From: a virus
IMG/VR virus record: IMGVR_UViG_3300042509_002293
Span: 1-64,000 of that record
Reading direction: 5' to 3' (one strand)
DNA: 64,000 nt
Shown here: positions 11,540-26,654 of the stretch, piece after piece
Position numbering within the stretch: position 1 is the stretch's first letter
Layout: every line of letters begins with the position of its first letter
Program-made: the position numbers and the translations under genes
Notes under the pieces: generated by a model
Databases searched by the model: none
What the model was told of the DNA's origin: nothing
Seen by the model: only the letters and a program-made list of their open reading frames with translations

Positions 11540-12030
11540 CCCGAAAAAATCGGGGCCTTAGAAGTGAAGCCCTAGAAGATGGATTTCCCCTATATGGGTA
11601 CCCCCCAGGAGAAATCAATCCAGAACCAGAGATCCAAGATCCAGAGATCACCTAAGTCTATATCTACCAATGAGTTAGATATGGATTTAGAAGAGAATTC
11701 TAGAAGTCCAAAATCAAGGAATCATCAAAATTAACAGATTCGCGTAATGGGGGGGTCACTGGTTTTCCCTTTGGGTACCCCTATAGGGGAAATGTTTTTT
11801 TTGGTTTCCAGGGGAGGGGGATAGGCATAGCGGGCCAAGGGGCATTTTCCGGAAAAAAGATACTTTCAGTGGCCTGGAAGGCCCTGCTAGGCTGCAAGGA
11901 GAGCGGTCAGGACACCCCACCCGGAGGGAGTGTGTTCGCCGGCGAGCCCTGAGGCTAATTCGACGCCATCGGGGGCTTGCGTGAGCGCCTGCAAAAAACT
12001 GGGCCGGGGCTTTCCCGGCCGATTTTCAGA
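11540..12030. other. Non-coding region, AT-rich to about 11890; probable cos/packaging region
   Basis: Between gp74-like HNH and terS; low GC, homopolymer runs, GGGTACCC palindromes. Confidence 0.55.
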
Positions 12031-12033
12031 CTT

Positions 12034-12513
12034 ATGGGCCGACCCGCCATCCCCACCGCGATCAAGCTCGTCCGGCAGAACCCGGGCTGCCGCCCGATCA
12101 ACGAGGCCGAGCCCACACCTCCCCCCGCCGACCTCGCCCCGCCTCCGTCCCTGGAGGGCGTCGCCCTGGAGAAGTGGCACGAGATGGCCGCCCTCCTCTC
12201 GGGAATGGGCGTCCTCACCCAGGCCGACCGCCAGACGCTGACCCGCTACTGCATGATGCACGAGCAGTGGGACGCGATGGAGCGGCACTGCCGGGAGCAT
12301 GGCTCCACACAGATCACTTCGACCGGCTACAGCCAGATCACTGCGGAGGCAACTCTCGCGAAGTCCCTCAGGAAGGAACTCCTGGAGATTGAGCGTCAGT
12401 TTGGCATGACTCCGGCTGCCCGGTCATCCATGAAGGTGGCTCCGAGTGCCTCTGCCCCCCAAAATCCTCTTGCCGCGTTTGCCCAAAGCCGACGCAGTCA
12501 AGCAGGGGCTTAA
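12034..12513 (+). CDS. terS: Terminase small subunit (P27 family)
   Basis: MGRPAIPTAIK...NPGxRPIN..EP...AD...L.RYC...FGMTPAARS. Confidence 0.9.
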   Translation: MGRPAIPTAIKLVRQNPGCRPINEAEPTPPPADLAPPPSLEGVALEKWHEMAALLSGMGVLTQADRQTLTRYCMMHEQWDAMERHCREHGSTQITSTGYSQITAEATLAKSLRKELLEIERQFGMTPAARSSMKVAPSASAPQNPLAAFAQSRRSQAGA

Positions 12514-14118
12514 GTTCTACTTCGACGAAGACAAGGCCGCCCACGCGGTCCAGTTCTTCGAGCAGTTCCTGACCCACTCCAAGGGTCAGTTCGCCGGGAA
12601 GCCTTTCTCGCTCCTCTCCTGGCAGAAGCATGACATCATCGAGGAGCTTTTCGGGTGGATGCGGGTCGACACCGACACCAGGAAGTTCCGGGTCGGCTAC
12701 ATCGAGGTGCCTAAAAAAAATGGCGTCTTGGCCCCTGCGGCTGGTTGCCGTGGGGGCCAAGACGACCATCAGGAAAGTCAACTCTCCTCAGCGGCATAGG
12801 CCTCTACACCCTAGTCGCCGACGGCGAGCAGGCGGCCGAGTGCTTCGGGTGCGCGACAAGTCGTGAGCAGGCCTCGATCGTCTACAAGCAAATGAAGGAA
12901 CTGGTCCAGGCCAGCCCCTACCTCTCCGAGATGCTGGAGGTGGTCGACTCCAGGAAGACCATCGCCTACATCCCCACGAACAGCTTCTGGAAGGTCATTT
13001 CGAGTGACGCCGGACGCCAGGAAGGCCTCAACATCCACTCGCTCTGCTATGACGAGATCCATTCCGCCCGTGACGACAGGCTTTGGCGCGCCGTCCGGTA
13101 TGGTGGAATTTCCAGAGCCCAGAGCCTCATCCTCGCCATTACGACAGCCGGCGTGGACCGGAACTCGATCGGCTACGAACTGCACGACCACGCCATGAAG
13201 TGCCGGCTCGACCCGCACTACGACGAGCAGTTCTTCGCCTTCGTGGCGGCAGCGGCCCCCGAGGACGACTACCGGGACCCGGAAGTCTGGAAGGCCGCCA
13301 ATCCTTCCTGGGGCGTGACGATGGACGAGGAGTCCTTTCGGGCTGACGTCCGGGACGCCGAGCAGTCCAACGCCCGGCTCGCCAGCTTCCTCCGATACAG
13401 GCTCAATGTCTGGACACAGGGAGACGGCAACAAGTACATCCGGCTCGACCAGTGGGACCAGTGCAAGGGCCCTTCGGGGCACCTCGGACCCGAGCGGGTG
13501 TGGTACGCCGGCCTCGACCTTGCCCAGACCTGGGACTGCAACGCCTTCGTGGCCGTCAGCAAGGGGCCGGACGACGTGTTCGACGTGCTCTGCCGGTTCT
13601 GGATCCCAGGCGAGAATGCAGGCCTTCGTTCCCAGAAAGACGGCGTGCCCTACACGCTGTGGGCGAAGGAGGAGAAGAACGGCCTGACGCTGACTCCGGG
13701 AAACACCTGCGACTACTCGTTCATCAAGCGGGACATCCTCCAGTTCTGCAAGGAGCGGACCGTCCGCCTGATCGCGGTCGACCCCCACAACAGCCACTAC
13801 CTCGTCCAGCAACTTCAGGCGGAAGGCCTGAGTGTGCAAGGATTTTCACAAGGGTTCGCCAGCATGAACCCTGGCACGAAACTTTTGAGCACCCTGATCG
13901 CTCAGGGCCGCCTGCGGACCAACGACAACCCCATCCTGAACTGGATGGCCGGAAACGCGACGACCAAGGAATCCCCCGAGGGCTACGTCAAGGTGGTAAA
14001 GCCAAGTGCCATGAGCCCTCTGAGGGTTGACGGGATTGTCGCCCTCATCATGGCTACCGCCATTGCGAACGAGGCTCCGGCTGCGGTCGCTGCCGAGCCG
14101 GAGATCCTGATCCTATGA
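12446..14118 (+). CDS. terL: Terminase large subunit, split over two frames by a 50-nt hairpin in Walker A (exact start uncertain)
   Basis: Frame A: L..WQ...LFGW...YIEVPKKNG; frame B: GKSTLLSG...DEIH...ITTAG...ANPS...GLDLA...DGIVA. Confidence 0.9.
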
Positions 14119-17100
14119 GTCGAGAAGAGAACGCCGCACTCAGCGACATTGTCTGGACACCCGCACGGGGCGAGAACGAGCCGGAGCTTCGCAGCATCTC
14201 CTGGAACAACCTCCTCCTCTCGGACGAGGTGTTCGGCGGGAAGTTCCTGACTGCCGCCGAGATTCGGATCAATCCGGAGACTGCGCTTCAGTCGACCGTG
14301 CTCCTGGCCTGCTGCCGGATCCTCGCCGAAACGGTTTCGGTCCTTCCCCTCCACGTCTACCGGAAGCTCAAGAACGGCCACGAGGAGATTGCCGAGGACA
14401 TCCCCCTGGCCCACGTCCTCGGGTTCGCTCCCAACGGGTGGCAGACGAAGTTCGAGTTCTTCGAGCAGGTGATGATGAACCTGACTCTCTGGGGGAACTC
14501 CTACACCGAGATCAAGTCTGGCAAGTACGGGTCCGTCACCGAACTGAACAACCTGCACCCGAGTAACATGCGGGTCGAGCGGCTGGAGAACGGCCGGCTC
14601 AAGTACACCTACAACGACCCGCAGACTGGTCGGGCCCTGGAGTACACCCAGGATCAGGTCATGCACATCCGCTGGACGCCCCAGCCGGATGGCGTGAAGG
14701 GCATGATGCCCGTCGAGATCGCTCGCGACGCCATTGCCCTGGCCCGCGCGTGCGAAATCTACGCCTCGAAGTTCTGGGCGAACATGGGCCGCCCCGGCGT
14801 GGTCCTCCAGACGGATGGCGCCATCTCGGCGGAGACGGCCGAACGCCTCCGGGACAACTGGGAGCGAATTCATAGAGGCGTGTCCAACGCCTATAAAACC
14901 GCGATCCTCACCAACGGGCTCCGCGTCGAACAGTTCGGCGCCACGAATACCGACAGCCAGTACCTCGATGTAAGAAAATTTCAGGGCGAGGAGATCGCGA
15001 GGTGCTACCGGTTGCCGTTGCACCTTATTCAGGGGCAGTCGGGCGGCAACCTGGAAGTCCAGGGCCGCGAGTTCGTCGACTACACGCTCATGCCCTGGCT
15101 CGCCCGCATCGAGCAGGCGATCAGTCGGTCGCTCATCTACGACGACGCCACCTACAAGGCCCGCTTCGACGTGCGTGGCCTGCTCCGTGGGGACAGCGCG
15201 AGCCGGGCGAGCTACTACTCCACGATGATGGGGCTCGGGATTTTCTCGATCAACGACGTGAGGCGACAGGAGGGGATGGCCCCGCTTGGACCCGACGCCG
15301 ACAAGCACTTCGTGGCGATGAACCTCCAGACGCTGGAGGACGCGGTCAAGCCGAAGCCCGACCCCTCGCAGATGCCGGGCGCTCCGCCCCCCGCCCCTGG
15401 CGGCCCGCCGAGCCTGCCCGAGGTCAAGCCCGGGAAGGCTCCGATGGAGTCACCCAAGGGCGAGGCCTCGGTGAAGAAGCTCCCGGAGAAGGCCTCGGCC
15501 GAGGCTCGCGAGCTACTGCCCCAGGACGAGAAGCTCGAAGAGGCTCAGCAGGAGATCGCGGAGGAGGACGGGAAGTGGGAGAAGGAAGCGGCCCACTACA
15601 TCGAGAAGAACCCGTTCGCCGCTCGTGGCATCAAGTGCCACAACTGCACGCACTACTTCGAGGAGGCCGGGTGCAAGATCGTCCGTGGCCTGATCGCGGG
15701 CGACGCGATCTGCAAGCTGTGGGTGATCCCGCCTGAGAAGATCGCCCCGGAGCCCGAGCAGCGGGCGTTCTGCCCGACGGGAGAGGGCAACGGCATCAAG
15801 AATGACTGCTCCCCAGGCGGCAGCTATCCGGTGGCCGACTCTATGCCTCGCGAGGTCGAGGCTGGTCACCCAGCCCTCGCCGCGAGAGCGCCGTTCAGTC
15901 CGGTTCCAGAGGGCAGTGGGAACTCAGCCTTTGCCGTGCCTCCGTCTGACTCGGACCTGTCTCAGGCGTTGATTGGGTCGAACAAGACGAAGGGCACGAA
16001 GATCGGCAAGGCCAGGGAGCTTCCGGAAGGGACTCCTGTCGCCCTTCGCATCGACATCCCGGCGTTCAATCACTCAACCGAGAGGATGGGGAAGGCGGTA
16101 TACGCCATCACCATTCACGAAGACAAGGGCGGCAAGTCGTTTGGCAGCCCGATCGGATACGACTCGATGGCCCGCCTCTCCGGACCGGTCAGGTTTGAGG
16201 CGAAAGAGAACGAAGCCATCCGCGTGGCGACAGGCGAGTCCACGAAGACACCTCTCGCGACCGTGAAAGGCAAGATTTCGCAGGATCGCACGATCCCGAA
16301 GGACGTGGATTCGTGGACCCCTGTCGGGTACGACCCGAAGAAGGCCGCCTACTTCTACGACAAGAGGACCGGGCAGGAGGTGAAGAGCGGAGTCGACGCA
16401 CTGAGCGTCGGCAATACGGTCTTCACCCGCAGGCCACAGTACGGCGACCGCAACGTCAAGGAGCACTACCGCTCCGCCGACGAGATGTTCGCGAGCGACT
16501 CGTGGGGCCTAGAGTCCCGTGGTTTCTGTCCCACTGGAGAGGGCGGCGGGATCGACAACTCTTGCGGTCGCGGAGACTCGTCAGGAGGAGACTCGCCCGA
16601 CGGGCCCGAGCCAAAGCGTGCCTCCACTCGCGAGGTCCTCGATGAAATCCTTCGGAGCATCGAGGAAACCGGCGGATATTCGGTTCACCCAGTGACGGCC
16701 GAGAGTCCCACGACCGGATTCATGTGTTCGACGGTCCCAGGTGCCGAGAAGATTATCGACGGCAAGGATCAAGTCACCGAGGCGGTCGTCGACGCCTACT
16801 TCGATGAGCACCGGGACTACCTTTCTTCGCGGCCGAAGCTACACTTAGGTGGTTGGATTGACGGGTCTGACGGGAAGGTCTACCTGGACCTCTCGGAGAG
16901 GTTTGAGACGCAGGAAGAGGCCGAGAAGGCTGCGGTCGAGCACAACCAGCTTGCGATCTGGGACATCGCCAACAAGAAAGAGATCAGGATCAAGAATGAG
17001 CGAGCAGCCGAAGAAGATGGTGAGGTTCGACTTCAAGCCCGGCGCGACCTCGAAGGAGATCGCCGAGGCGATCGAGCGGGCCAGGAAGAAGGTCGTTCAG

Positions 17101-20100
17101 GAGTACGCCGAGGCGAAGGCCAAGGCGGATGCGGATCGCCAACTGGGCGAGTAGAGTCTCGCGAAGGCTCGGACTGCGGCCGAGACGACGGCGGAAAGTT
17201 CGGCCCTGGCAACAAGTGCCAGGAGGACGCCGGAGACGGCGAGCAGGAGTCCAGTGGCGGCGACACTGCCACTGCCACTCTGGCGCCGCCTCAGGTCCAC
17301 CCCGGCTCGCCGTCTCACGAGGGCCGCGTCTCTGCTCTTACGACCGGCTCCCTGCTGGACGGAAGCGAGCGTCTTGACGTCCCGACGATCCGTGGCCGTG
17401 TCCTTGAGACCGACCTGTCTCAGGCACTGACCCAGCGGGCCATCGCGGCCCACGGCGGAAGGGTCATCGACATAAACGACCGCGTGAGCGACGCGGACAT
17501 GGACGTCTGCTCCGACGCGCTGGCCGAGGATCTCGACCGGGCCGCAAAGGACCTCGGGCGTCATTCGGGCTGGTACTCCGAGGACGTTGGCCGGGCTGTT
17601 GAAATCGCCAGGAGCATGCCCGGGAACGAGAAGATCGGGGACGGCACTCGCGACGGCGAGCTTCACGACTTCGTTTTCAGCACGGCCCTCGGGATTCTCT
17701 CCCAGGAAAACACGGTCCCACAGAATGCCCGATACGCAGACGCGATGTATCGGAACTGGGTTCAGACCGGCAGCCTGATCATTCCCGAGGAACACCACTC
17801 GGCCCTGGGAAGAAGCTTCAACGCAAAGGCATTCGAGGTCGTCCAGACACTCGCCGACAGGCATGGGTGGGACGACGTGATGAAGTTCTTCTCCAAGTCC
17901 GACACTGTCGGGAACCTCGTGAAGACTGCCAACACGATGCTCCCCGACTCGCCGTACTCGCTCGGCGTCAGCAATGAACTCGTGTCGACGCGGGTGCCGA
18001 CGTTCGCGCTGTTCGGCCCCAAGATCGGCGCCTTCACCCATGCAGTCGCCAACCGGGAGCGAGCCGACGATGCTTTTGACTTTGTGGTCAAGGATCGGTG
18101 GCTCATGCGTCAGGCTGGCTCCATCTTCGGGACTCTCATGTCGCCGACGGACGGGGAGAAGTCGTCCGAGCATATGTCGAGAGTCCTGGATAGCATCAAG
18201 GGCCTTCGCACAGGAAGCCCCCTCCTTCACGGCCTGAGCGCTTCGGAGGTCAAGGCGAGCCTCCAGGAGGCCATCCGGCTGAAGACAACGCCGGACGACG
18301 ACTCCCCCGCGATGGAGTACATCCGGAGGACGGTCAAGGCTTACGCGAAAAGCTCAAGCTCGACAAACTCCACATACGCCGACAAGACTGAGCGGAATCT
18401 CGCGGCCAATAACGCCTTCAAGAACAGAACGCAGATCCTGATCGCCCCAGGGAACGGAACGCAGTCACTAAACCTTCACCGTCTCTTCGAGGAGGCGGCG
18501 AAAAAGTCTGGACGAGGTAACGTCTGCGAGGCGCAGGCGCTTGGGTGGGTGGACACGCAGCGTCTCTGGCAGAGCCTGGGCTATAAGCTGAAGACTCCGC
18601 CGGATCAGAATACGTTTAGCTCCGCGTTCTCTGCGCTCGCGTCCGGTAGGTCGGCCAGCGGAAGAATCACGGACATCGCAGCGGAGGCGGAAAGGCAACG
18701 CCGCGAGGCGGCACAGGCCAGCGGCAGGAAGTCTCGCCGAGACGCCACTGGCTCGGATGAGTGGGATTCCACCCGGGACATCAATGCAATCGGAGAGGAT
18801 CCGCAGATTCTTTTCAACGAGTCGCTGAGCGATCCTGATACCTTTAATGCGTTGCTTGAGCACATCAGCGCGTTGATCTCTCGCGACTCCTCGTCCGAGC
18901 GTCGCGCCTTCTGCCCCACCGGCGAAGGCGGCGGTGTGAAGAACGACTGCCCCCCCAGCGAGGGCGGCAGCGGTGGCGACGAAGATGACGACAAGGGCGG
19001 AGACATCGCAAAGGCTGACGATGACTCTGGGCCTCGCCCATCCTCCGGCCCCGAGATCAAGATCGGCGACAAGCCCGAGGAGATCGACCGCCGCCTGGAG
19101 GCTATGGGCATCAAGCAGGACGACGCCATCGGCATGGTGGGCGGAAGCCGCGACGGAACCTACGTCTTCGTCCGCCGCGACCACGATCGCGACGGAGGCG
19201 ACGGCCTCCACATTGAGACCACCCGCGACGTGGCCGGCGTGAAAGACGGCCTGTTCAGCCAGTCCGTCGTCTACAACGCTGGCCCGCCGCAGTCGCCTGA
19301 GCTTGTCGTCGATCACAAGCTCATGGACGTGAAGACCGACGTGAGCCGTGACCCCGAGAAGAGGCACGCCGCCGCTCGCGAGTTCTTCCGAATTATGACC
19401 GACAGCGTTCAGGAGTCGCTCAAGCGAGGAGTCTCGAAGATCACGCTCAACGCCGCCGGCGACCCCAAGCAGGCCCGCGACGGCATGTTCCGTGGGTACA
19501 CGATCTGGCCCCGGATGGGATTCAACGCTCCGATCCCGAACCACATCCGCAACAAGCTGCCGCCCGACCTGGGGCACTGCCGCACCCTCCTCGACCTCCA
19601 CGCGACCCCGGACGGAACGCGGTGGTGGAAGAAGAACGGCACGGACCTCGACGTCCAGCTTGACCTGACCAAGGCCGACAGCCCGCAGATGCAGGTCTTC
19701 GGTCGGTTCGTTCGTCACTTCGAGCGTGACCGCCGAGACCTTGCCTATGGGACCGGAGACGAATGGCTCTCGCCGGCCGACGAGGTCAAGCTCGACGAGT
19801 TGTGGCAGGAGGTCTGGGACGAGGGCCTGCTCGACGACTACACGGGCGAGGACGAAGACTTCAGGGTTTTGGAGAAGCGGGCCTTCTGCCCCACCGGCGA
19901 AGGCGGCGGGGTGAAGAATGACTGCTCGCCAAACGACGAAGGTGGCGGCGATACGGCCACGGCCCCCAGGCCGAACACTATGCCTAAGGCGAAGTACGAC
20001 GACCCCAGGAACAAGGAGTCGTGGCTGAGCACCGGAGGGGATTTTCACCCGTTCGATCGGGCGAAAGAGCCGGCCGATCGACTGAAGTCTCCGATCGGCT

Positions 20101-21284
20101 TCAATACCCACGACTTCTGGGCCAAGAAGCACGGCGTGGACGGCGGAGAGCCCGAACTGCTCGGCAAAGGCTGGATGCGGGTAACTGCTTCTGGCCGAAC
20201 GCTCTACCTCAGCAACTCCAGCGGCAATCCCCCGACCGATCGCCAGCGAAAGGTTGCGATTGACCACGCCATCGCGACGGACAAGTACGACGACATCGTC
20301 TTCGATGCCGGCTACGGCAAGCAGCCCAGGACGATCTGGAGCAAGAGGTCGAAGAAAGTACGAGGCGAGTCTCGTGCCTTCTGCGCGACAGGCGAAGGCG
20401 GCGGAATCGACAACTCGTGCGGCGCCGGCGAGAAGATGGCCGCCGACAAGGACTCCGGGGGCGGATCTTCTTCTCGATGGGGCGGGAAAGAGGAGAAGTG
20501 GGGCCGATCGAGCGAGACAGAAATCTGGACTCCGGGCAAGCCGCTCTTCCCCGGGGCCGAGAGCCTTGCCTCCATCAAGATCACGAGGCCAAACGACGTC
20601 CGGGGCATCATCGAGGACGGCCTGAAGATGAAGATTGCGGACGCCGTACTGGCCTCTGGCCCGGTAGCGGATTCCGCAGATCGATCGAGCATCACCCGCC
20701 CTCGGCTTGAGATTGTCCCAACCGGCCACGGCATCGAGATGCGGTGGACTTCAATGGGCGTCGCCACCGGAGAGGGCTTCAAGGGCGAGGAGGAGCAGTT
20801 CAAGAGTCAGCCGGGGACCGCCGTGAAGGCTGCCGCAGCCTCTCGCGACCTCTGGATCACGAATCAAGGGCCGGTCCTTAACATGGGCGGATTCTTCATT
20901 CATCCAGACTTCCAGGGCAAGGGCTTGGCGCTTGAGTCTGTGGCCAAGTCGTCGTCCTCGGGCGTCATCCGCATGGAAATGCAGGCCGAGCGATTTGATG
21001 CGGATGACCCGAATCTTCGCATGACCGGATACAAGGTGTGGCCGAAGTACGGATACGACGCCCCACTCTCTCTCGTCCGTGGGACTCTGAGGTCTCAGGA
21101 CCAGGAAATCCCCAAGGAATTTTCTGGTGCCAGGACTTTGGCCGACATTTTCCGCATGCCGGGCGGCCGTGAGTGGTGGTCCCAAAGCGGCGATTCGATC
21201 CGGCTCGTCTTCGACTGCCGCCCCAGAAGCAAGAGCGTCGAAACTCTGCTAAAATTGCAGGACCGTTACCGCAAAGGGAGGTAG
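14115..21284 (+). CDS. HK97-family portal protein (about first 410 aa) fused to about 1950 aa of cargo domains
   Basis: AC.RILAETVSVLPL...PN..QT..EF...GNSY...HIR...EIAR.Y..P..L...L.PW..RIEQ...LLRGD...NDVR..E; frame stays open for 2389 aa. Confidence 0.9.
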   Translation: MSREENAALSDIVWTPARGENEPELRSISWNNLLLSDEVFGGKFLTAAEIRINPETALQSTVLLACCRILAETVSVLPLHVYRKLKNGHEEIAEDIPLAHVLGFAPNGWQTKFEFFEQVMMNLTLWGNSYTEIKSGKYGSVTELNNLHPSNMRVERLENGRLKYTYNDPQTGRALEYTQDQVMHIRWTPQPDGVKGMMPVEIARDAIALARACEIYASKFWANMGRPGVVLQTDGAISAETAERLRDNWERIHRGVSNAYKTAILTNGLRVEQFGATNTDSQYLDVRKFQGEEIARCYRLPLHLIQGQSGGNLEVQGREFVDYTLMPWLARIEQAISRSLIYDDATYKARFDVRGLLRGDSASRASYYSTMMGLGIFSINDVRRQEGMAPLGPDADKHFVAMNLQTLEDAVKPKPDPSQMPGAPPPAPGGPPSLPEVKPGKAPMESPKGEASVKKLPEKASAEARELLPQDEKLEEAQQEIAEEDGKWEKEAAHYIEKNPFAARGIKCHNCTHYFEEAGCKIVRGLIAGDAICKLWVIPPEKIAPEPEQRAFCPTGEGNGIKNDCSPGGSYPVADSMPREVEAGHPALAARAPFSPVPEGSGNSAFAVPPSDSDLSQALIGSNKTKGTKIGKARELPEGTPVALRIDIPAFNHSTERMGKAVYAITIHEDKGGKSFGSPIGYDSMARLSGPVRFEAKENEAIRVATGESTKTPLATVKGKISQDRTIPKDVDSWTPVGYDPKKAAYFYDKRTGQEVKSGVDALSVGNTVFTRRPQYGDRNVKEHYRSADEMFASDSWGLESRGFCPTGEGGGIDNSCGRGDSSGGDSPDGPEPKRASTREVLDEILRSIEETGGYSVHPVTAESPTTGFMCSTVPGAEKIIDGKDQVTEAVVDAYFDEHRDYLSSRPKLHLGGWIDGSDGKVYLDLSERFETQEEAEKAAVEHNQLAIWDIANKKEIRIKNERAAEEDGEVRLQARRDLEGDRRGDRAGQEEGRSGVRRGEGQGGCGSPTGRVESREGSDCGRDDGGKFGPGNKCQEDAGDGEQESSGGDTATATLAPPQVHPGSPSHEGRVSALTTGSLLDGSERLDVPTIRGRVLETDLSQALTQRAIAAHGGRVIDINDRVSDADMDVCSDALAEDLDRAAKDLGRHSGWYSEDVGRAVEIARSMPGNEKIGDGTRDGELHDFVFSTALGILSQENTVPQNARYADAMYRNWVQTGSLIIPEEHHSALGRSFNAKAFEVVQTLADRHGWDDVMKFFSKSDTVGNLVKTANTMLPDSPYSLGVSNELVSTRVPTFALFGPKIGAFTHAVANRERADDAFDFVVKDRWLMRQAGSIFGTLMSPTDGEKSSEHMSRVLDSIKGLRTGSPLLHGLSASEVKASLQEAIRLKTTPDDDSPAMEYIRRTVKAYAKSSSSTNSTYADKTERNLAANNAFKNRTQILIAPGNGTQSLNLHRLFEEAAKKSGRGNVCEAQALGWVDTQRLWQSLGYKLKTPPDQNTFSSAFSALASGRSASGRITDIAAEAERQRREAAQASGRKSRRDATGSDEWDSTRDINAIGEDPQILFNESLSDPDTFNALLEHISALISRDSSSERRAFCPTGEGGGVKNDCPPSEGGSGGDEDDDKGGDIAKADDDSGPRPSSGPEIKIGDKPEEIDRRLEAMGIKQDDAIGMVGGSRDGTYVFVRRDHDRDGGDGLHIETTRDVAGVKDGLFSQSVVYNAGPPQSPELVVDHKLMDVKTDVSRDPEKRHAAAREFFRIMTDSVQESLKRGVSKITLNAAGDPKQARDGMFRGYTIWPRMGFNAPIPNHIRNKLPPDLGHCRTLLDLHATPDGTRWWKKNGTDLDVQLDLTKADSPQMQVFGRFVRHFERDRRDLAYGTGDEWLSPADEVKLDELWQEVWDEGLLDDYTGEDEDFRVLEKRAFCPTGEGGGVKNDCSPNDEGGGDTATAPRPNTMPKAKYDDPRNKESWLSTGGDFHPFDRAKEPADRLKSPIGFNTHDFWAKKHGVDGGEPELLGKGWMRVTASGRTLYLSNSSGNPPTDRQRKVAIDHAIATDKYDDIVFDAGYGKQPRTIWSKRSKKVRGESRAFCATGEGGGIDNSCGAGEKMAADKDSGGGSSSRWGGKEEKWGRSSETEIWTPGKPLFPGAESLASIKITRPNDVRGIIEDGLKMKIADAVLASGPVADSADRSSITRPRLEIVPTGHGIEMRWTSMGVATGEGFKGEEEQFKSQPGTAVKAAAASRDLWITNQGPVLNMGGFFIHPDFQGKGLALESVAKSSSSGVIRMEMQAERFDADDPNLRMTGYKVWPKYGYDAPLSLVRGTLRSQDQEIPKEFSGARTLADIFRMPGGREWWSQSGDSIRLVFDCRPRSKSVETLLKLQDRYRKGR
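16996..17154 (+). CDS. Overprinted small ORF (52 aa) inside the portal gene
   Basis: MSEQPKKMVRFDFKPGATSKEIAEAIERARKK reads as a natural protein while the portal frame here is R/G/E-rich, like an off-frame read. Confidence 0.55.
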   Translation: MSEQPKKMVRFDFKPGATSKEIAEAIERARKKVVQEYAEAKAKADADRQLGE

Positions 21285-21286
21285 GC

Positions 21287-21475
21287 ATGGGCGACGAAAA
21301 GATCGGCTGCGATTCTGACCGGGACGATGCCGTTGACGCGGCGTGGGAAGAAATCCAGAAGGAGGGCCTGACTGGCGAGTCACCGACTCAGGAGGAGTGG
21401 GACCGCTGGGCGGCCGAAGCCAACGAGAGGAAGAAGGCCAAGGATGGCAACGCCGGAGAAGTACAGTCACATTAG
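21287..21475 (+). CDS. Small acidic protein, possible inhibitor of the terminal GNAT domain
   Basis: GGGAGGT RBS; DDAVDAAWEEIQKEGL resembles DEVKLDELWQEVWDEGL after the first GNAT domain. Confidence 0.65.
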   Translation: MGDEKIGCDSDRDDAVDAAWEEIQKEGLTGESPTQEEWDRWAAEANERKKAKDGNAGEVQSH

Positions 21476-23042
21476 CTTCACGCCCCCGTCGGGGGTTCGC
21501 AGGGAAGCGGAGTACGGACTGAAGCTGCGTCGCGAGCATGGCCGTGGCGGCACCGCCGTCGGCATCGCCCGCGCCCGGGATCTGTCGAACGGCAGGGAGG
21601 TGTCGCCGTCGACCGTCAAGCGAATGAAGGCCTACTTCGATCGCCACGACTCGGACCAGCAGGCCGAGGGTTTCAATCGCGGCGACAAGGGCTGGCCCTC
21701 CAACGGCTATATCGCCGCCAAGCTCTGGGGCGGATTCCAGAGCGGCTATTCCTGGGCAAAGAAGGTCGTCGCCCAGATGGAGGCCGCCGACGGGAAGGAG
21801 TCGTCTCGCTCTTATAGTCCGGATACGGAAACCCGTAGCCTGAACGGCATGGAAACCACCGAAAGCCGATTCGTCGCCACCGACACGCCTGAGCCCGAGG
21901 CCACCGAGATGCCCCAGGTCGAGCGGCGGTATCTGGCCTCCGCCGGTACTGAGAGCTCAACCGAGGGCACGCTCGGCGTCGAGCACCGCGCCGACCCGCA
22001 GACGGGCGAGAGGCGGACGTACCTTGTCGGGTATGCGGCAAAATTTGGAACTGACTCTTTGCTGCTCGGGGACTTCATCGAGCAAATTGCCCCGTCCGCA
22101 TTCGAGATCGTCACCAAGGGAAAGGACCTCGAAGGAAATCCCCTAGAGACTCGCGGCCTTTTCAATCACGACCCGAACCACCTCATCGGTCGGTTTCCGA
22201 ACACGATGAAGCTCACGGTCGACAAGATCGGCCTGAAGTACGAGATCCTCCTTCCCGAGAGTCGGCAGGATATCGCCGAAATGGTAGCTCGCGGGGACCT
22301 CAAGGGATCGAGCTTCAGCTTCGTCGTGGCAGAGGGCGGGGAAAAGTGGACCCGCGAGGGCGGCAGGAGCCGCCGCCTCGTCACCCGCATCAAGTCCCTC
22401 CTGGATTGTGGCCCCGTCACATACCCGGCCTATAAAAATTCTTCCGTTGCCGTCGCCAAGCGGAGCTACGAGCAGTTCATCTCGGCGCAGGATCCGAAGC
22501 CAGCCGAGCCGCTGAAGCCGAAGACCGACGTCGCTGCGGAGATGCGGAAGTACCAGGAGTTCATCGCCGAGCGACGCGGCTTCTGTCCGACGGGCCCAGG
22601 CGGCGGCGTCGACAACTCGTGCGGCGCGTCCGCCAGTGGTGGAGATTCCGGAAAATACAAAGAGTGGAAGAAGGGCGATCACCTCGACAAGTCGAAGGAG
22701 AAAGACGCCCAGGACTTCCTCGATAAGGCCCGAACTGACCAACTCGCCCGTGGTGGCAAGGACGGCGGAAAGTCCGACGACGGCGGCGGCGTGCAGACCT
22801 GGAGCAAGGGCGACCACTTTCCCTGGACGGCCAAGCAGGTCGGCGACACCGACGGCTACGTTCAGGGCCTGCACCCGGATGGAAGCAAGACGGAGAAGTA
22901 TCCGTTCGCCGGCGGCAAGACGGCCGACGCCTACGCGAAGCTCTCCGAGGAGTTGAAGGGCCGGGTCAAGAAGGACAAGAGGTCCACCGATCCGTCTGCC
23001 GTCGCATCGGAGATGCTGAGGTTCCTCAAGGACCGCCGGTAA
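21444..23042 (+). CDS. HK97-type prohead protease with N- and C-terminal extra domains
   Basis: GYAAKF...F.EQIAPSAF...LFNHD...GL.YEI...RGD..GSSFSF...VTYPAY; N-terminal GT.VG.ARARDL...RM.AYF.RH...LWGG domain; C-terminal CPTG tag. Confidence 0.9.
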   Translation: MATPEKYSHISFTPPSGVRREAEYGLKLRREHGRGGTAVGIARARDLSNGREVSPSTVKRMKAYFDRHDSDQQAEGFNRGDKGWPSNGYIAAKLWGGFQSGYSWAKKVVAQMEAADGKESSRSYSPDTETRSLNGMETTESRFVATDTPEPEATEMPQVERRYLASAGTESSTEGTLGVEHRADPQTGERRTYLVGYAAKFGTDSLLLGDFIEQIAPSAFEIVTKGKDLEGNPLETRGLFNHDPNHLIGRFPNTMKLTVDKIGLKYEILLPESRQDIAEMVARGDLKGSSFSFVVAEGGEKWTREGGRSRRLVTRIKSLLDCGPVTYPAYKNSSVAVAKRSYEQFISAQDPKPAEPLKPKTDVAAEMRKYQEFIAERRGFCPTGPGGGVDNSCGASASGGDSGKYKEWKKGDHLDKSKEKDAQDFLDKARTDQLARGGKDGGKSDDGGGVQTWSKGDHFPWTAKQVGDTDGYVQGLHPDGSKTEKYPFAGGKTADAYAKLSEELKGRVKKDKRSTDPSAVASEMLRFLKDRR

Positions 23043-24850
23043 TGAGTGCCGCGACGGACTGCCGGATCGCGAGCCTGCACGCCTTCGCCCAGGCGAGGGC
23101 GATGGGATCGGCGACGAATGCAGGTGGCGGAGCAGTCTCCGGCGGAGCCGACTGCGGGCGGGATTCGGACGGGAAGTTTGGCGCTGGCAACACCTGCCGC
23201 ATCGGAATCAATATCAACGACTCTACCCAGGCCTTCACGACGCAGATTCTTGCCGGCCAGAAGACGATCGAGACTCGGCCAACAAACTCGCTTCGCCCCT
23301 ACGTCGGCAAGACGGTCGGAATCGTTCGGACTGGCCAGGGCAAGGCCACGCTCGTGGGCACGATGAAGATCGGCGAGCCTAAGTTCTACAAGACGAAGAA
23401 AGACTTCGACGCGGACCGCAAGAAGCACCTCGTCTCCCCGGGCAGCCCGCACTACATCACGGCCGCCGGGAAGTACGGTTACCCTCTCTCCGAAGTGCGT
23501 CCCGTAAAGCCCATCGAACTCGACACGAAGGGGATCGTCGGGAGGGTGATCGCGAAGTCGAGCCGCAGCGAAGAGCTTGAGTATGACCTAGATGGAGTTG
23601 AGCTTCGCGCATTCTGCCCCACGGGCGAAGGCGGTGGACTCGACAACTCATGCGGCAGCGGAGAGACAGCCTCTACGCCGCCGGAAAAAACTCAGAAGCC
23701 AAGATGGATGGGTGCCGTAGACGCGGCGGGTGAGACCAAGCACGGAACGTGGTTCCTGGAGAAGAACGAAGACGGGAGCAAATCGCCAGGACACGACGAA
23801 GCCACGTCCCACGTTGTTAGCCTTGTTGGCGGCAAGGATGAGGTTAAGGCGTTCGTGTTTGCTGACGCTCACGATGATCGTCTCTACATCAACTACTCTC
23901 AGGTTGCGGAGCCTCATCGCGGCAAGGGAGTTTACAAAGAGCTTCTTTCGTCGCTGCAAGAGCAATTCACGATTCATTCGGACGAACAGCACAACGTCGC
24001 CACCGCCGCAAAAAAGGCTTACGAGTCGCTCGGCGCGAGGCTGAATCAGTACGGGCAGTACGTCCTCGAACGGAAGCGTCGCGATTCTCGCGGCTCATCC
24101 CTCGGCGCTCGCCACGCCAGCCTCCTCGCCTTCGCCCAGTCTCGCGACTGCGGGCGAGACCCGGACGGCAAGTTCTCGTCCGGCAACACCTGCGCCGGTG
24201 GAGTGGCCGCAGACGCCGCCAAGGGGGCCATCAAGGGCGCCGCCGAGGGCGGGCTGCTCGGCCTCTGGGTTGCTGGCCCCCCGGGGGCCAAGACCGGTGC
24301 GGTCGCTGGGGCCGCTGTCGGGGCCGCGAAGGGGATCTACGACAATCAGATGCGGCCGACCCGCGTGAAGAAGGCGATCGACAGGCTCGGCCTCACGGAC
24401 CAGAAGGTCGGGAGGCTTGTCGAAAAGCTCGGCGGCACCCCGGAGTCGTCGGCGAACGCGAAGCGAGGCGTTCTGACCCTCACGATTCGAGACAAGGACA
24501 ACAAGAAAACCTTCCACGTCGAGGTCACGAAGAAGGGCGTCACCGTGTACCCCAGGCGGGCAACCGGGGAGTTGAGCGGCAAGGAGATCGCCCGGATCAA
24601 GCAGGTCGCGAAGGACCTGTCCCCGCGCCCGGTCAGCGTCACAGTCAAGCAAAGCTCGTCCGCCTATGTGGCCAAGCTCGTGAAGAGCGGCTTCAAGGTG
24701 ACCGCCGGCAAGGTTGCCGGCACGCTCGTCGCGAACTATGTGGTCCCGACGGCGATTGGGCTTGCGGTCACCGCCTCGGAAGGGGCGGCGGCCGCAGCGG
24801 GAGTCGCGGCGGCCAAGGTCGTCGCCAAAATTCCGAAGAAGCGTTCGTAA
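23042..24850 (+). CDS. Head-associated multidomain protein (ASCH + GNAT + tag motifs)
   Basis: ILAGQKTIETR (ASCH GxKxxExR); VAEPHRGKGVY...KKAYESLG (GNAT); one CPTG and two DCGRD tags. Confidence 0.75.
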   Translation: MSAATDCRIASLHAFAQARAMGSATNAGGGAVSGGADCGRDSDGKFGAGNTCRIGININDSTQAFTTQILAGQKTIETRPTNSLRPYVGKTVGIVRTGQGKATLVGTMKIGEPKFYKTKKDFDADRKKHLVSPGSPHYITAAGKYGYPLSEVRPVKPIELDTKGIVGRVIAKSSRSEELEYDLDGVELRAFCPTGEGGGLDNSCGSGETASTPPEKTQKPRWMGAVDAAGETKHGTWFLEKNEDGSKSPGHDEATSHVVSLVGGKDEVKAFVFADAHDDRLYINYSQVAEPHRGKGVYKELLSSLQEQFTIHSDEQHNVATAAKKAYESLGARLNQYGQYVLERKRRDSRGSSLGARHASLLAFAQSRDCGRDPDGKFSSGNTCAGGVAADAAKGAIKGAAEGGLLGLWVAGPPGAKTGAVAGAAVGAAKGIYDNQMRPTRVKKAIDRLGLTDQKVGRLVEKLGGTPESSANAKRGVLTLTIRDKDNKKTFHVEVTKKGVTVYPRRATGELSGKEIARIKQVAKDLSPRPVSVTVKQSSSAYVAKLVKSGFKVTAGKVAGTLVANYVVPTAIGLAVTASEGAAAAAGVAAAKVVAKIPKKRS

Positions 24851-25053: not shown

Positions 25054-25181
25054 TGTTGTGTCACACAACACTTTTTTCTTGGCCCTCTTCGGGCAAGTGA
25101 TCGCCTCCTTTTAGGGTGAACGTGTGGCCGCTGTTTTGCGGTCGCCACACGAAACACACACCCGCAAGGAAGCGATCACAG

Positions 25182-26654
25182 ATGGAAGCCTCCGCCAAGG
25201 TCAAGCAGCTTCTCGACGAACTGGCCGCCGTTCTCGCAGAGATGGGCGCCCTCCAGGAGCAGGGCGACATCGAGGACACCGAGGCCGGTGACGAGATGGC
25301 CGAGAAGGCCGGCATGGAGGAGGACGAGACCGAAGCCGAGTCCCCCGAGCAGGTCGCCGAGGAGGAGGAGGCGAAGGAGAAGAAGATTCGCTGCCTCTGC
25401 GAGCGTGCCGAGAAGATCCGCGACCGCATCAAGTTTTACGAGTCTGTGGCCGCCAAGGAGCTTGAACTCCGAACGGTCCTGGACAAGGCGACCCCCGCGT
25501 CGGAGGCCGCCGTCGTTTCTCGAAACACCCCGGCCAAGGAGGGCCGTTCCGTGACGCAGATTTATCACAACCTTCCCGGTGCCGGTCGTCTCCGTGGTTT
25601 CCGTGGCCCGAACGCCGAGGAGCGTGCCTATCGTGCTGGCATGTTCTACAAGTCGGCCCTGTTCGGCGACCGTGAGGCGACCCGGTGGTGCGCTGACCAC
25701 GGCGTGATCGACAGCCGCGCGATGGGCGAGGGCGTCAACTCGCTCGGCGGCGTGAGCGTGGCCGAGGAGGTGCTCAACGAGATCATCGTGCTGGTTGAGC
25801 AGTACGGCGTGTTCGTTCAGAACGCCCGCAACGTGAACATGCAGTCGGACACCCTCGTGGTGCCTCGGCGAGTTGGCGGTCTCCAGGCCTATTTTATTGG
25901 CGAGAACACGAGCATCCCGGATTCCGACGCGAGTTGGGATCGGGTTCAGCTTATCGCCAAAAAGGTGGCTGTCTCTAATAGGATTTCTTCGGAGCTTTTG
26001 CAGGACTCCGTACTGGCTTTGGGCGATTATTTGACTATGGAGACAGCAAGGGCCATTTCGATCCTCACGGATCGCGTGGGCTTTGTGGGCACGGGCTCCG
26101 GCGAAGACGGTGGTATCGTCGGTGCCGCGACGAAGGTCGCTGACGGCAGCCACAACGCCGGCCTCGTGACGGCCGCGACCGGCAACACGTCGGCTACGAC
26201 CCTCACGATCGACGACTTCGTGAACACCGCAGCCCGTCTCCCCGTGTACGCACGGGCTCGGGCCGCGTGGTACTGCTCGCCCGCCGTGTTCGCGGCCAGC
26301 GTGCAGCGTCTCGGCCTGACCAACAACGGCAAGCTGACGGGCGGCAACAGCGCCTCGAACCTCGCCGATGCTCCCGAGATGCGTCTGCTCGGATACCCTG
26401 TGAATTTCGTGCATACGATGCCGAGCAACCTGGGTGTCGATGCCGGGAAGGTGCAGTTCCTGCTCGGCGACCTCAGCCTCAGCACGATGTACGCGACCCG
26501 TCGCGGCCTCCAGATCAAGACCTCGGTCGACCGCTACGCGGAACTCGACCAGACCCTGATCGTGGCGACCACGCGTTTCGACGCGGTGACGCATGACTGC
26601 GGCGACAACACGAAGGCTGGCCCGCTCGTTGGTCTCCGCACGGCTCTTTCTTGA
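25182..26654 (+). CDS. Major capsid protein (HK97 fold) with N-terminal delta domain
   Basis: Acidic coiled-coil N-terminus; R|AMGEG...GG..V; IGE...IP.SD; IS.ELLQDS; LLGYPV; GDLS. Confidence 0.9.
   Translation: MEASAKVKQLLDELAAVLAEMGALQEQGDIEDTEAGDEMAEKAGMEEDETEAESPEQVAEEEEAKEKKIRCLCERAEKIRDRIKFYESVAAKELELRTVLDKATPASEAAVVSRNTPAKEGRSVTQIYHNLPGAGRLRGFRGPNAEERAYRAGMFYKSALFGDREATRWCADHGVIDSRAMGEGVNSLGGVSVAEEVLNEIIVLVEQYGVFVQNARNVNMQSDTLVVPRRVGGLQAYFIGENTSIPDSDASWDRVQLIAKKVAVSNRISSELLQDSVLALGDYLTMETARAISILTDRVGFVGTGSGEDGGIVGAATKVADGSHNAGLVTAATGNTSATTLTIDDFVNTAARLPVYARARAAWYCSPAVFAASVQRLGLTNNGKLTGGNSASNLADAPEMRLLGYPVNFVHTMPSNLGVDAGKVQFLLGDLSLSTMYATRRGLQIKTSVDRYAELDQTLIVATTRFDAVTHDCGDNTKAGPLVGLRTALS

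Follow-up and report, generated by a model that had tools for sequence, protein, structure and literature searches.

The head genes of the uncultured phage in IMG/VR record IMGVR_UViG_3300042509_002293 encode long multidomain chains in which successive domains are delimited by a short, cysteine-bracketed element, here called the tag. The stretch that was analysed, referred to as the window, comprises positions 1 to 64,000 of that record (96,079 bp, rated 98% complete). Its head module occupies 12.7–26.7 kb on the + strand, the strand of all window features given below, and consists of the large terminase, a portal open reading frame (ORF), a prohead protease ORF, a third head ORF and the capsid gene. 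With a probability of roughly 60%, judged from sequence comparison and from a structural model, we read the tags as sites at which the prohead protease would cut between head-cargo domains, each tag then persisting as a Cys loop on the cargo that follows it. We found no published description of the tag itself, and text-string searches (FCPTG, CPTGEGGG and similar) gave no relevant paper. The delimiter is apparently undescribed and very widespread; the theme of polyvalent proteins and prohead proteases to which it belongs is already known.

Two kinds of tag are present. A regular-expression scan for tag 1, FC[PA]TGxGxGxxNxC, returned seven copies; together with the residues that lead into it, tag 1 spans 18 residues and reads ExR[AG]F-CPTGxGGGxxNxC. 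Five copies lie in the portal ORF (P0001, 14115–21284), a chain of 2389 residues in which the portal is followed by some 1,950 extra residues. They start at residues 552, 804, 1599, 1924 and 2089 (nucleotides 15768, 16524, 18909, 19884 and 20379) and, when the preceding ExR is included, read EQRAF-C..C (15756–15809), ESRGF-C..C (16512–16565), ERRAF-C..C (18897–18950), EKRAF-C..C (19872–19925) and ESRAF-CATG..C (20367–20420). The sixth copy, ERRGF-C..C (22569–22622), starts at residue 380 of the protease ORF (P0002; nucleotide 22581) behind a helix, KYQEFIAERR, and the seventh (23600–23653) at residue 191 of the third head ORF (P0003; nucleotide 23612). Tag 2, DCGRDxxGKFxxGNxC, has three copies, one at residue 1020 of the portal ORF (nucleotide 17172; ESR-EGSD-CGRD..C, 17154–17219) and two at residues 37 and 369 of the third head ORF (nucleotides 23150 and 24146; 23090–23197 and 24137–24193). 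No further copy of either tag was found in the six-frame translation of the 64-kb window, loosened patterns included. A preliminary description of this DNA had reported the long portal ORF with its repeated tags and three copies of the second tag. The ORFs and the pattern scan agree with it; the starts of tag 2 are identical, and those of tag 1 are offset by about 6 nucleotides, as the earlier count began at the ExR.

The copies are not repeats at the DNA level. At residues that are identical between tag copies, the same codon was used with a frequency of 0.58, while 0.51 is expected from codon usage. Because codon identity is near random, the tag copies are taken to be maintained as protein and not as DNA repeats. 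DNA repeats, recombination sites and an assembly artefact were rejected on this ground and because independent contigs have the same architecture, with equally long portal fusions of 2416 residues in L088 and 2655 residues in L099 (L numbers denote IMG/VR loci fetched around tag matches). An assembly artefact in the long ORF, which the preliminary description had named as a refuting condition, is therefore unlikely.

Across 221 distinct tag contexts, with positions counted from the first Cys, the logo is E(-5) x [R/N](-3) [A/G](-2) F(-1) C P T G E G G G [I/V] D [N/P] [S/T] C [G/S]. A Gly/Ser-rich stretch follows directly, and nothing is conserved upstream of -6. In all lineages the loop keeps its two Cys, its Thr and the Gly at +3, +5 and +7, and nearly always Asp +9 and Phe -1; the residue before the first Cys was Phe, Tyr or Trp in all 221 contexts. 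The five residues before the loop, here called the P-side, fall into the classes ExR[AG]F, [TV]xN[AV]F, LK[AV]F and [YF][AE]F. Tag 2 is likewise preceded by E/Q-x-R, and in the protease of L103 it stands (RFLEERR-GGD-CGRD..) exactly at the site at which relatives have tag 1 (FLDERR-GFCPTG..). Tag 2 is a second loop that is interchangeable with tag 1.

The tag is a widespread element restricted to phages. A degenerate DNA pattern for FCPTGEGGG matched 106 stretches of IMG/VR contigs; in 185,579 bacterial and archaeal species genomes (one each) it matched 2 stretches, of which 1 held a complete tag. The fetched loci contain 281 copies of tag 1 and 19 of tag 2 in 164 open frames. A tag profile of 44 columns, built from 127 tags, was searched against 1.84 billion proteins. 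It matched 1,533 cluster representatives at E ≤ 0.001 and 433 at E ≤ 1e-10, with a maximum of 10 tags per protein. For the 120 best matches, precomputed Pfam assignments gave MuF in 46, a portal family (PF04860, PF06381 or PF05136) in 13 and S78 in 6, so that 65 of the 120 have one of these head domains in the same chain as the tag; 17 others had effector domains alone (ART, zeta toxin, HNH etc.), and 38 nothing known. Since most of them hold a portal, MuF or prohead-protease domain, the tag carriers can be equated with the polyvalent proteins of Iyer et al. 2017. In other lineages, Pfam found MuF with ART-PolyVal, InPase, 2H phosphoesterase, zeta toxin and sigma-70 in the tag ORFs, and further topoisomerase IB, RelA/SpoT, C70 peptidase and an intein. 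Small tag proteins of K-type phages (named, like R-type and N-type, after the residue at -3) adjoin protease, scaffold and capsid genes.

Three individual carriers illustrate the range. The cargo of a MuF protein with three tags (L005:5314-7515) comprises regions 2 and 4 of sigma-70, so that a sigma factor would be packaged in this case. In L074:1285-2964 the tag-delimited cargo is a eukaryotic-type topoisomerase IB core. A chain of 2968 residues with 8 tags (L085:3288-12191) contains two ART domains, InPase, MuF and an intein with an HNH/DUF559 endonuclease.

The tag belongs to the domain that follows it. In the 120 best database proteins the distance from a tag to the C-terminus was at least 61 residues (median 342), and the first tag lay no more than 60 residues from the N-terminus in 49 of them. 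Over 381 tags, the 25 residues after a tag were more polar than the 25 before it (0.68 vs 0.52) and less hydrophobic (0.18 vs 0.29). In small stand-alone proteins the tag comes directly after an initial leader of 10–25 residues, as in M..EDILKV-FCPTG.. or MIAARYASLLAFAQAR-GFC... From the polarity of the tag, the linker and the leader proteins, the unit is therefore the end of an upstream domain or a short leader, followed by P-side, loop, linker and cargo domain.

Close relatives have their head genes in the same succession (terL, portal, cargo, protease, third ORF, capsid). They differ in which cargo domains are present, in how these are ordered and in where the ORFs break, and these changes fall at tags. 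The cargo chain is split in L004, L053, L039, L054 and L025, where a second ORF begins at the stop of the portal ORF; in L004, L053, L039, L025 and L031 the separate cargo ORF opens with the conserved leader ..WWDEDAERLNK.., at the end of which stands ExR-AFC. The protease ORF is constant in relatives, with an N-terminal domain, S78, a tag, in some cases an insert and a second tag, and a C-terminal domain. Several claims of the preliminary description can be judged on this material. The polyprotein layout, the occurrence of tags in proteins of the head module alone (portal, MuF, prohead protease and adjoining proteins) and the assignment of each tag to the cargo downstream were upheld by the loci, the Pfam scans, the profile search and the distances to the chain ends. 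The flexible linker that it saw after the tags is matched by the polar fractions above and by a modelled cargo domain (domain F, below), in which the first 25 residues score below 50. Loading of cargo by fusion to the portal turned out to be dispensable, for relatives have a separate, translationally coupled ORF with leader and tag, and the small proteins are built in the same way.

The residues ahead of the loop follow the phage and its head type. Each phage has one P-side class, shared by all its tags, and among the 120 best database proteins the class, as given by the residue at -3, was mixed in just 4. The residue at -3 was R in 15/15 proteins with S78 or a PF04860 portal, and N in 45/49 proteins with MuF or a PF06381 portal.

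The same motif stands where the capsid precursor would be matured. The candidate maturation site DSRAM (25710–25724) is at residues 199–203 of the HK97-type capsid protein (P0004, 25116–26654), at the junction of the delta domain and the mature protein and 9 residues before the Pfam Phage_capsid match (residues 211–490). The sequence DSR-AMG, which the preliminary description had compared with the ExR of the tags, is present at residues 199–204, and ten relatives have HGV..[E/D]-[S/Q]-R-A-[M/Q/L] at this position. A BLASTP comparison of HK97 gp5 with the capsid protein of the window gave no usable alignment, so that the junction is located here by conservation and by the point at which the Pfam match begins, and by these alone. 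The protease ORF (21444–23042, 532 residues) has a comparable site of its own. Its N-terminal domain (21444–21989, phrog_2859) ends at VEHR-ADP, a candidate self-processing site; the pattern VE[H/E/K]RADP is invariant directly before the S78 domain and after a variable linker, with E, R, A and D fixed in 14 homologues.

Counts of the motif point in the same direction. In the four head proteins of the window, E.R[AG][FYWML] was observed 9 times and expected 0.6 times. Outside tags, it occurred 79 times in R-type loci (29.5 ± 5.5 expected) and 11 times in N-type loci (10.2 expected), and the N-type motif was found 0 times in R-type loci, where 4.1 were expected. In an N-type phage (L019:7582-10599, two ORFs), a weakly DUF2213-like ORF closes with an N-type tag plus a short tail, a counterpart of the succession of S78, tag and tail. 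The next ORF encodes a charged, scaffold-like protein of 709 residues that has VTNTF and VRNTF and no Cys loop; by a rough estimate from composition, about 0.03 such sites would be expected in it. In the K-type phage L018, the capsid and scaffold proteins were without an obvious LK[AV]F site.

The candidate reader is the S78 prohead protease domain of P0002 (21990–22568). Pfam places Peptidase_S78 at residues 188–344 (E 2.5e-29; 103 bits vs a cut-off of 21), and the score against TIGR01543, 58.9, is just below the cut-off of 59. The motifs FNH(242)D and GSS(290)F align with the His/Ser region of HK97 gp4 and are invariant in 14 homologues; they supply the catalytic His242 (22167–22169) and Ser290 (22311–22313). 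We predicted a complex between the S78 domain, given as an alignment of 14 rows, and the tag, given as one of 127 rows, together with 3 controls. The score was 0.63 for the S78-tag pair and 0.00 for the best control; the mark set for this score was reached by 58/80 solved complexes and by 2/110 mismatched pairs. The runs share at least 46% of contacts, and the partner has a predicted local distance difference test value (pLDDT) of at least 45. In the model, tag positions -6 to -2 lie along protease residues 120–125, Ser290 contacts positions -4, -3 and -2, and His242 contacts -4. The model does not fix the bond and favours a cut at or beside R|[A/G], and with the [ED]xRA at the capsid junction of ten relatives it speaks for the earlier suggestion that ExR is a likely site of the prohead protease.

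Herein, we describe the process that these observations suggest. Cargo would be made as polyproteins hung on the portal, on the S78 prohead protease and on the third ORF. A chain would enter the prohead as part of the portal, the protease or MuF, or by means of a short N-terminal leader. Inside the prohead, the phage's own protease would read the P-side (here E-x-R-[A/G]-F) and cut at or beside R|[A/G], the motif for cargo being the one used on the delta/mature junction of the capsid protein. Each released cargo would keep the 13-residue Cys loop and the flexible linker at its N-terminus and would leave the capsid with the DNA. What we observe is the anatomy and distribution of the tag, its association with head genes and its lineage-specific P-side; cleavage, the exact bond and delivery are the parts that we infer. 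As to the loop, our guess is that it acts as a docking knob on the P' side, or as a metal- or disulfide-closed loop that caps the new N-terminus; it could also be an ejection signal or a metal or disulfide clasp.

Several points weigh against a protease site. The excess of non-tag motifs in R-type loci is inflated by the kinship of the loci, the [ED]xRA of the capsid sits within a block that is conserved in general, and the excess of non-tag sites of the N-type is not significant (3 vs 1.6). The P-side type could in part mirror common ancestry and not a common reader. In five N-type records, no prohead protease was matched by PF04586, PF00574 or PF10123, and the match to DUF2213 was sub-threshold; the wider set of capsid and protease families tried on these records (PF05065, PF04586, PF09950, PF00574 and PF10123) gave no matches, and for two of them the control genomes were silent as well. 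The complex is a model in which the partner's own fold is uncertain (pLDDT <50), and the Cys loop has no confident predicted fold in it. Finally, the Cys loop is far more conserved than a cutting site requires, and most of it lies outside the modelled interface, which takes in the base of the loop alone (C, P, T and the second C).

The loop is, moreover, common to lineages that differ in P-side and apparently also in protease. A minor possibility is that the Cys loop is an autonomous handle common to all lineages, closed by a metal or a disulfide, that would persist on the N-terminus of every freed cargo protein and decide whether it is held back on the DNA, in what order it passes out through the portal or how long it lasts in the infected cell. 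In that case the P-side ahead of the loop would have been exchanged to suit the protease of each lineage. A cut one position later than modelled would then expose Phe, Tyr or Trp at the N-terminus, and these are bacterial N-degron residues.

It is unlikely that the joints are left uncut. The whole chain would then lie in the capsid like beads on a string, with the Cys loops as metal or disulfide knuckles that stiffen or cross-link it, for example two loops around one metal ion, and the match between ExR and the capsid junction would be coincidental. The two Cys, the Thr, three Gly and the Asp of the loop are invariant or nearly so across differing P-sides, and this points to a structural or chemical function of its own; most of the loop also falls outside the modelled interface, and the tag profile had no match among PDB chain sequences even at E ≤ 10. 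However, uncut joints leave unexplained why the P-side is uniform within a phage and switches with head type, why the motif recurs at the capsid junction, and why small single-domain proteins have an N-terminal leader and a tag.

A mainly evolutionary role is improbable. The tags would be module boundaries at which cargo is swapped by recombination, like VENN or PxxxxDPxGL, and would have no part in assembly. Domain order, content and ORF breaks do differ between close relatives with the changes at tags, and the domains downstream are highly varied, as the preliminary description had noted for this window (ART, InPase, 2H, zeta toxin, sigma-70, topoisomerase IB and GNAT across the lineages). 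Yet the codon identity between copies offers little DNA homology for recombination, the conservation being at the protein level, and such swapping fits with a protease site as a side benefit and not as an alternative to it.

Self-cleavage, by attack of the Cys after Phe on the preceding bond (an intein-like N-to-S acyl shift) or by spontaneous breakage of Asp-Asn or Asp-Pro, is very improbable: the F-C pair and the D-[N/P] pair are strictly conserved and the MuF lineage has tags with no recognisable prohead protease found, but the 13-residue loop lacks a HINT or autoprocessing fold and no Pfam family covers it, lineage-specific P-side residues would be unnecessary, tag 2 differs in sequence yet shares P-side and position, and in the S78 model it is the P-side that meets the catalytic residues. 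An intein or HINT domain is a fold of about 130 residues or more around its Cys, and the window proteins had no Pfam HINT match. A reading as a sortase signal was dropped, as CPTG is without the x position of LPXTG. A 2A-like skipping signal was considered from the sequence and dropped too; to our knowledge, 2A-type ribosome skipping is not known in bacteria.

The closest known relatives of this system are the polyvalent proteins of Iyer, Burroughs, Anand, de Souza and Aravind (2017; PMC5512222), which are very long head-packaged chains fused to portal or MuF with ART, 2H, InPase and GNAT effectors. P0001 has the make-up of such a protein, namely a portal and at least six further segments, GNAT-like and HhH-GPD-like ones among them, with terL, protease and capsid genes adjacent. 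Those authors propose processing by embedded zincin-like metallopeptidases. Their paper, the text of which is without the words "cysteines" and "glycine", describes neither the Cys-loop delimiter nor a P-side that varies by lineage nor a connection with the site of capsid maturation. Nor does a paper on MuF toxins (PMC5576092), which is without the words motif, linker, cleavage, cysteine, glycine and junction.

In phage T4, an N-terminal leader, the capsid targeting sequence (CTS), takes cargo into the prohead, the prohead protease removes it at a consensus shared with capsid and scaffold proteins, and the cargo is injected (PMC9026906). The short leader and the protease consensus of T4 parallel the leader-plus-tag arrangement and the predicted protease site described here. 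The two systems differ in that the T4 protease is of family S77 (gp21) and cuts at [LI]xE, whereas here it is of family S78 with ExR[AG]; and T4 has one N-terminal leader and no counterpart of the Cys loop, whereas here there are many internal sites in a polyprotein. By analogy, the system of the window would work like a T4-type CTS without being a member of that class. Within KYQEFIAERR (22545–22577), the helix before the tag of P0002, there is a 7-mer, YQEFIAE, that also occurs in the T4 CTS MKTYQEFIAE. Relatives keep the pattern KxxxF[IL]xERR or Fxx[E/D]RR alone at this site and not the 7-mer, and the identity may be due to chance, an analogy and not homology. Helices before several sites (KYQEFIAERR, ARYASLLAFAQ[A/S]R) resemble the C-terminal end of the protease, ..LRFLKDRR.

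In phage HK97, the C-terminal tail of the protease directs it to the prohead. HK97 gp4 and P0002 share the protease family and the catalytic His/Ser, and both phages have a capsid delta domain with a junction at which it is removed or predicted to be removed. In contrast to HK97, which is without cargo, the protease ORF of the window has additional N- and C-terminal domains and a tag, and its predicted substrates would include a polyprotein borne on the portal. Polymorphic toxins offer a further parallel, as the border before a variable effector bears a short conserved motif (VENN in CdiA, PxxxxDPxGL in Rhs) at which processing also takes place. Those motifs are unrelated in sequence and serve secretion systems, whereas the tags belong to phage heads and occur many times per chain.

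Polyvalent head-packaged proteins are thought to be a main route by which counter-defence enzymes of phages are delivered along with the DNA. The loading and separation of chains of 2,000–3,000 residues have so far been a matter of conjecture, with embedded metallopeptidases as the proposal. A delimiter present in >1,500 protein clusters, with a P-side matched to the protease, provides a concrete and testable processing rule. Scanning metagenomic phage proteins for tags could show where their domains begin and end and bring new effector domains to light, and the module of leader and site could be carried over to load foreign proteins into capsids of the HK97 type. The invariant Cys loop, conserved for reasons that are not explained, merits a structure.

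The chain of P0001 can be divided at its tags. The HK97-type portal domain (14115–15359, residues 1–415) contains the sole Pfam domain of the protein, Phage_portal (residues 64–387, E 2.9e-94), and matches NCBIfam TIGR01537 portal_HK97; NCBIfam and PHROGs are consistent with Pfam on the head-module proteins. The tags and most cargo segments had no family in Pfam, NCBIfam or PHROGs. A Pro-rich linker and a small 4-Cys (HiPIP-like) domain follow the portal domain (15360–15755) and would be expected to remain on it after the first cut. The 4-Cys piece, of 80 residues between portal and first tag, is conserved in 15 related loci; at 15590–15755 it shows CxxC..C..C with HiPIP-like spacing and would stay with the mature portal. 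Cuts computed after every R give a portal of 61.5 kDa, which includes the linker and the 4-Cys domain, together with six cargo proteins of 18–63 kDa. Portal proteins have 12 subunits. If every site were cut, each virion would hold twelve copies of each cargo.

Cargo domain A (15810–16511) has homologues in 25 related loci and a weak, sub-threshold Pfam match. Domain B (16566–17153) matches phrog_17808 and phrog_3170, both of unknown function, and in L026 it opens the cargo of a separate ORF, where leader and tag precede it. It ends in an Arg/Gly-rich low-complexity stretch, ..DRRGDRAGQEEGRSGVRRGEGQGG.., which at 17055–17165 closes the domain directly before tag 2. Domain C (17220–18896) is predicted to have an all-alpha fold like that of HhH-GPD DNA glycosylases, with an inserted helical bundle. 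Its AlphaFold2 (AF2) model has a mean pLDDT of 68.8, and in a wide VIA search the top 22 chains were all of the HhH-GPD superfamily, with 3n0u_A as the best match (Z 11.4, root-mean-square deviation (rmsd) 3.5, 195/209 residues aligned). The matches comprise 8-oxoG, EndoIII, MutY, AlkA and MagIII glycosylases, DUF2419 and a phage 5-PmdU glycinyltransferase; Foldseek gave no match for this domain. As Z alone is not decisive for a helical model, it is the uniformity of the matches that suggests a glycosylase-like domain.

Domain D (18951–19871) is a GNAT-like paralogue of domain F, aligned with F and 46 homologues, and has an atlas lead to Acetyltransf_1 at 0.87. Domain E (19926–20366) has homologues in 2 loci alone, where they are in a different ORF. 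Domain F (20421–21284) has a predicted GNAT-like fold, with an AF2 pLDDT of 86.9 and values below 50 in its first 25 residues, the linker. Its top Foldseek matches were all acetyltransferases, at E 1.5e-3 and weaker, and VIA gave Z up to 7.9 (rmsd 3.4, 133 residues aligned). The match to GNAT is consistent and middling, and domain F is probably of this fold.

In the protease ORF, the C-terminal domain (22623–23039) follows the tag and ends in ..LRFLKDRR; the domain is conserved at the ends of protease ORFs in 17 loci. The third head ORF (23042–24850, 602 residues) had no family in the Pfam scan. Its layout is a leader, tag 2, an ASCH-like piece, tag 1, a GNAT-like piece, tag 2 and a Gly-rich hydrophobic tail. 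This last segment (24190–24847) is rich in Gly/Ala and hydrophobic residues and has weak Gly-zipper and DUF1269-like matches; from its sequence, the tail could be a membrane-active piece, such as a pilot or ejection protein.

Two observations concern the gene models at the ends of the head module. The frame of the large terminase is apparently split across the overlapping ORFs 11977–12513, 12446–12799 and 12745–14118. Relatives match the 457-residue terminase ORF from its residue 7–8 on, and their own ORFs have 468–789 residues. The capsid ORF at 25116 is listed with a GTG start, and an in-frame ATG 22 codons downstream (MEASAKVKQLL..) looks more natural.

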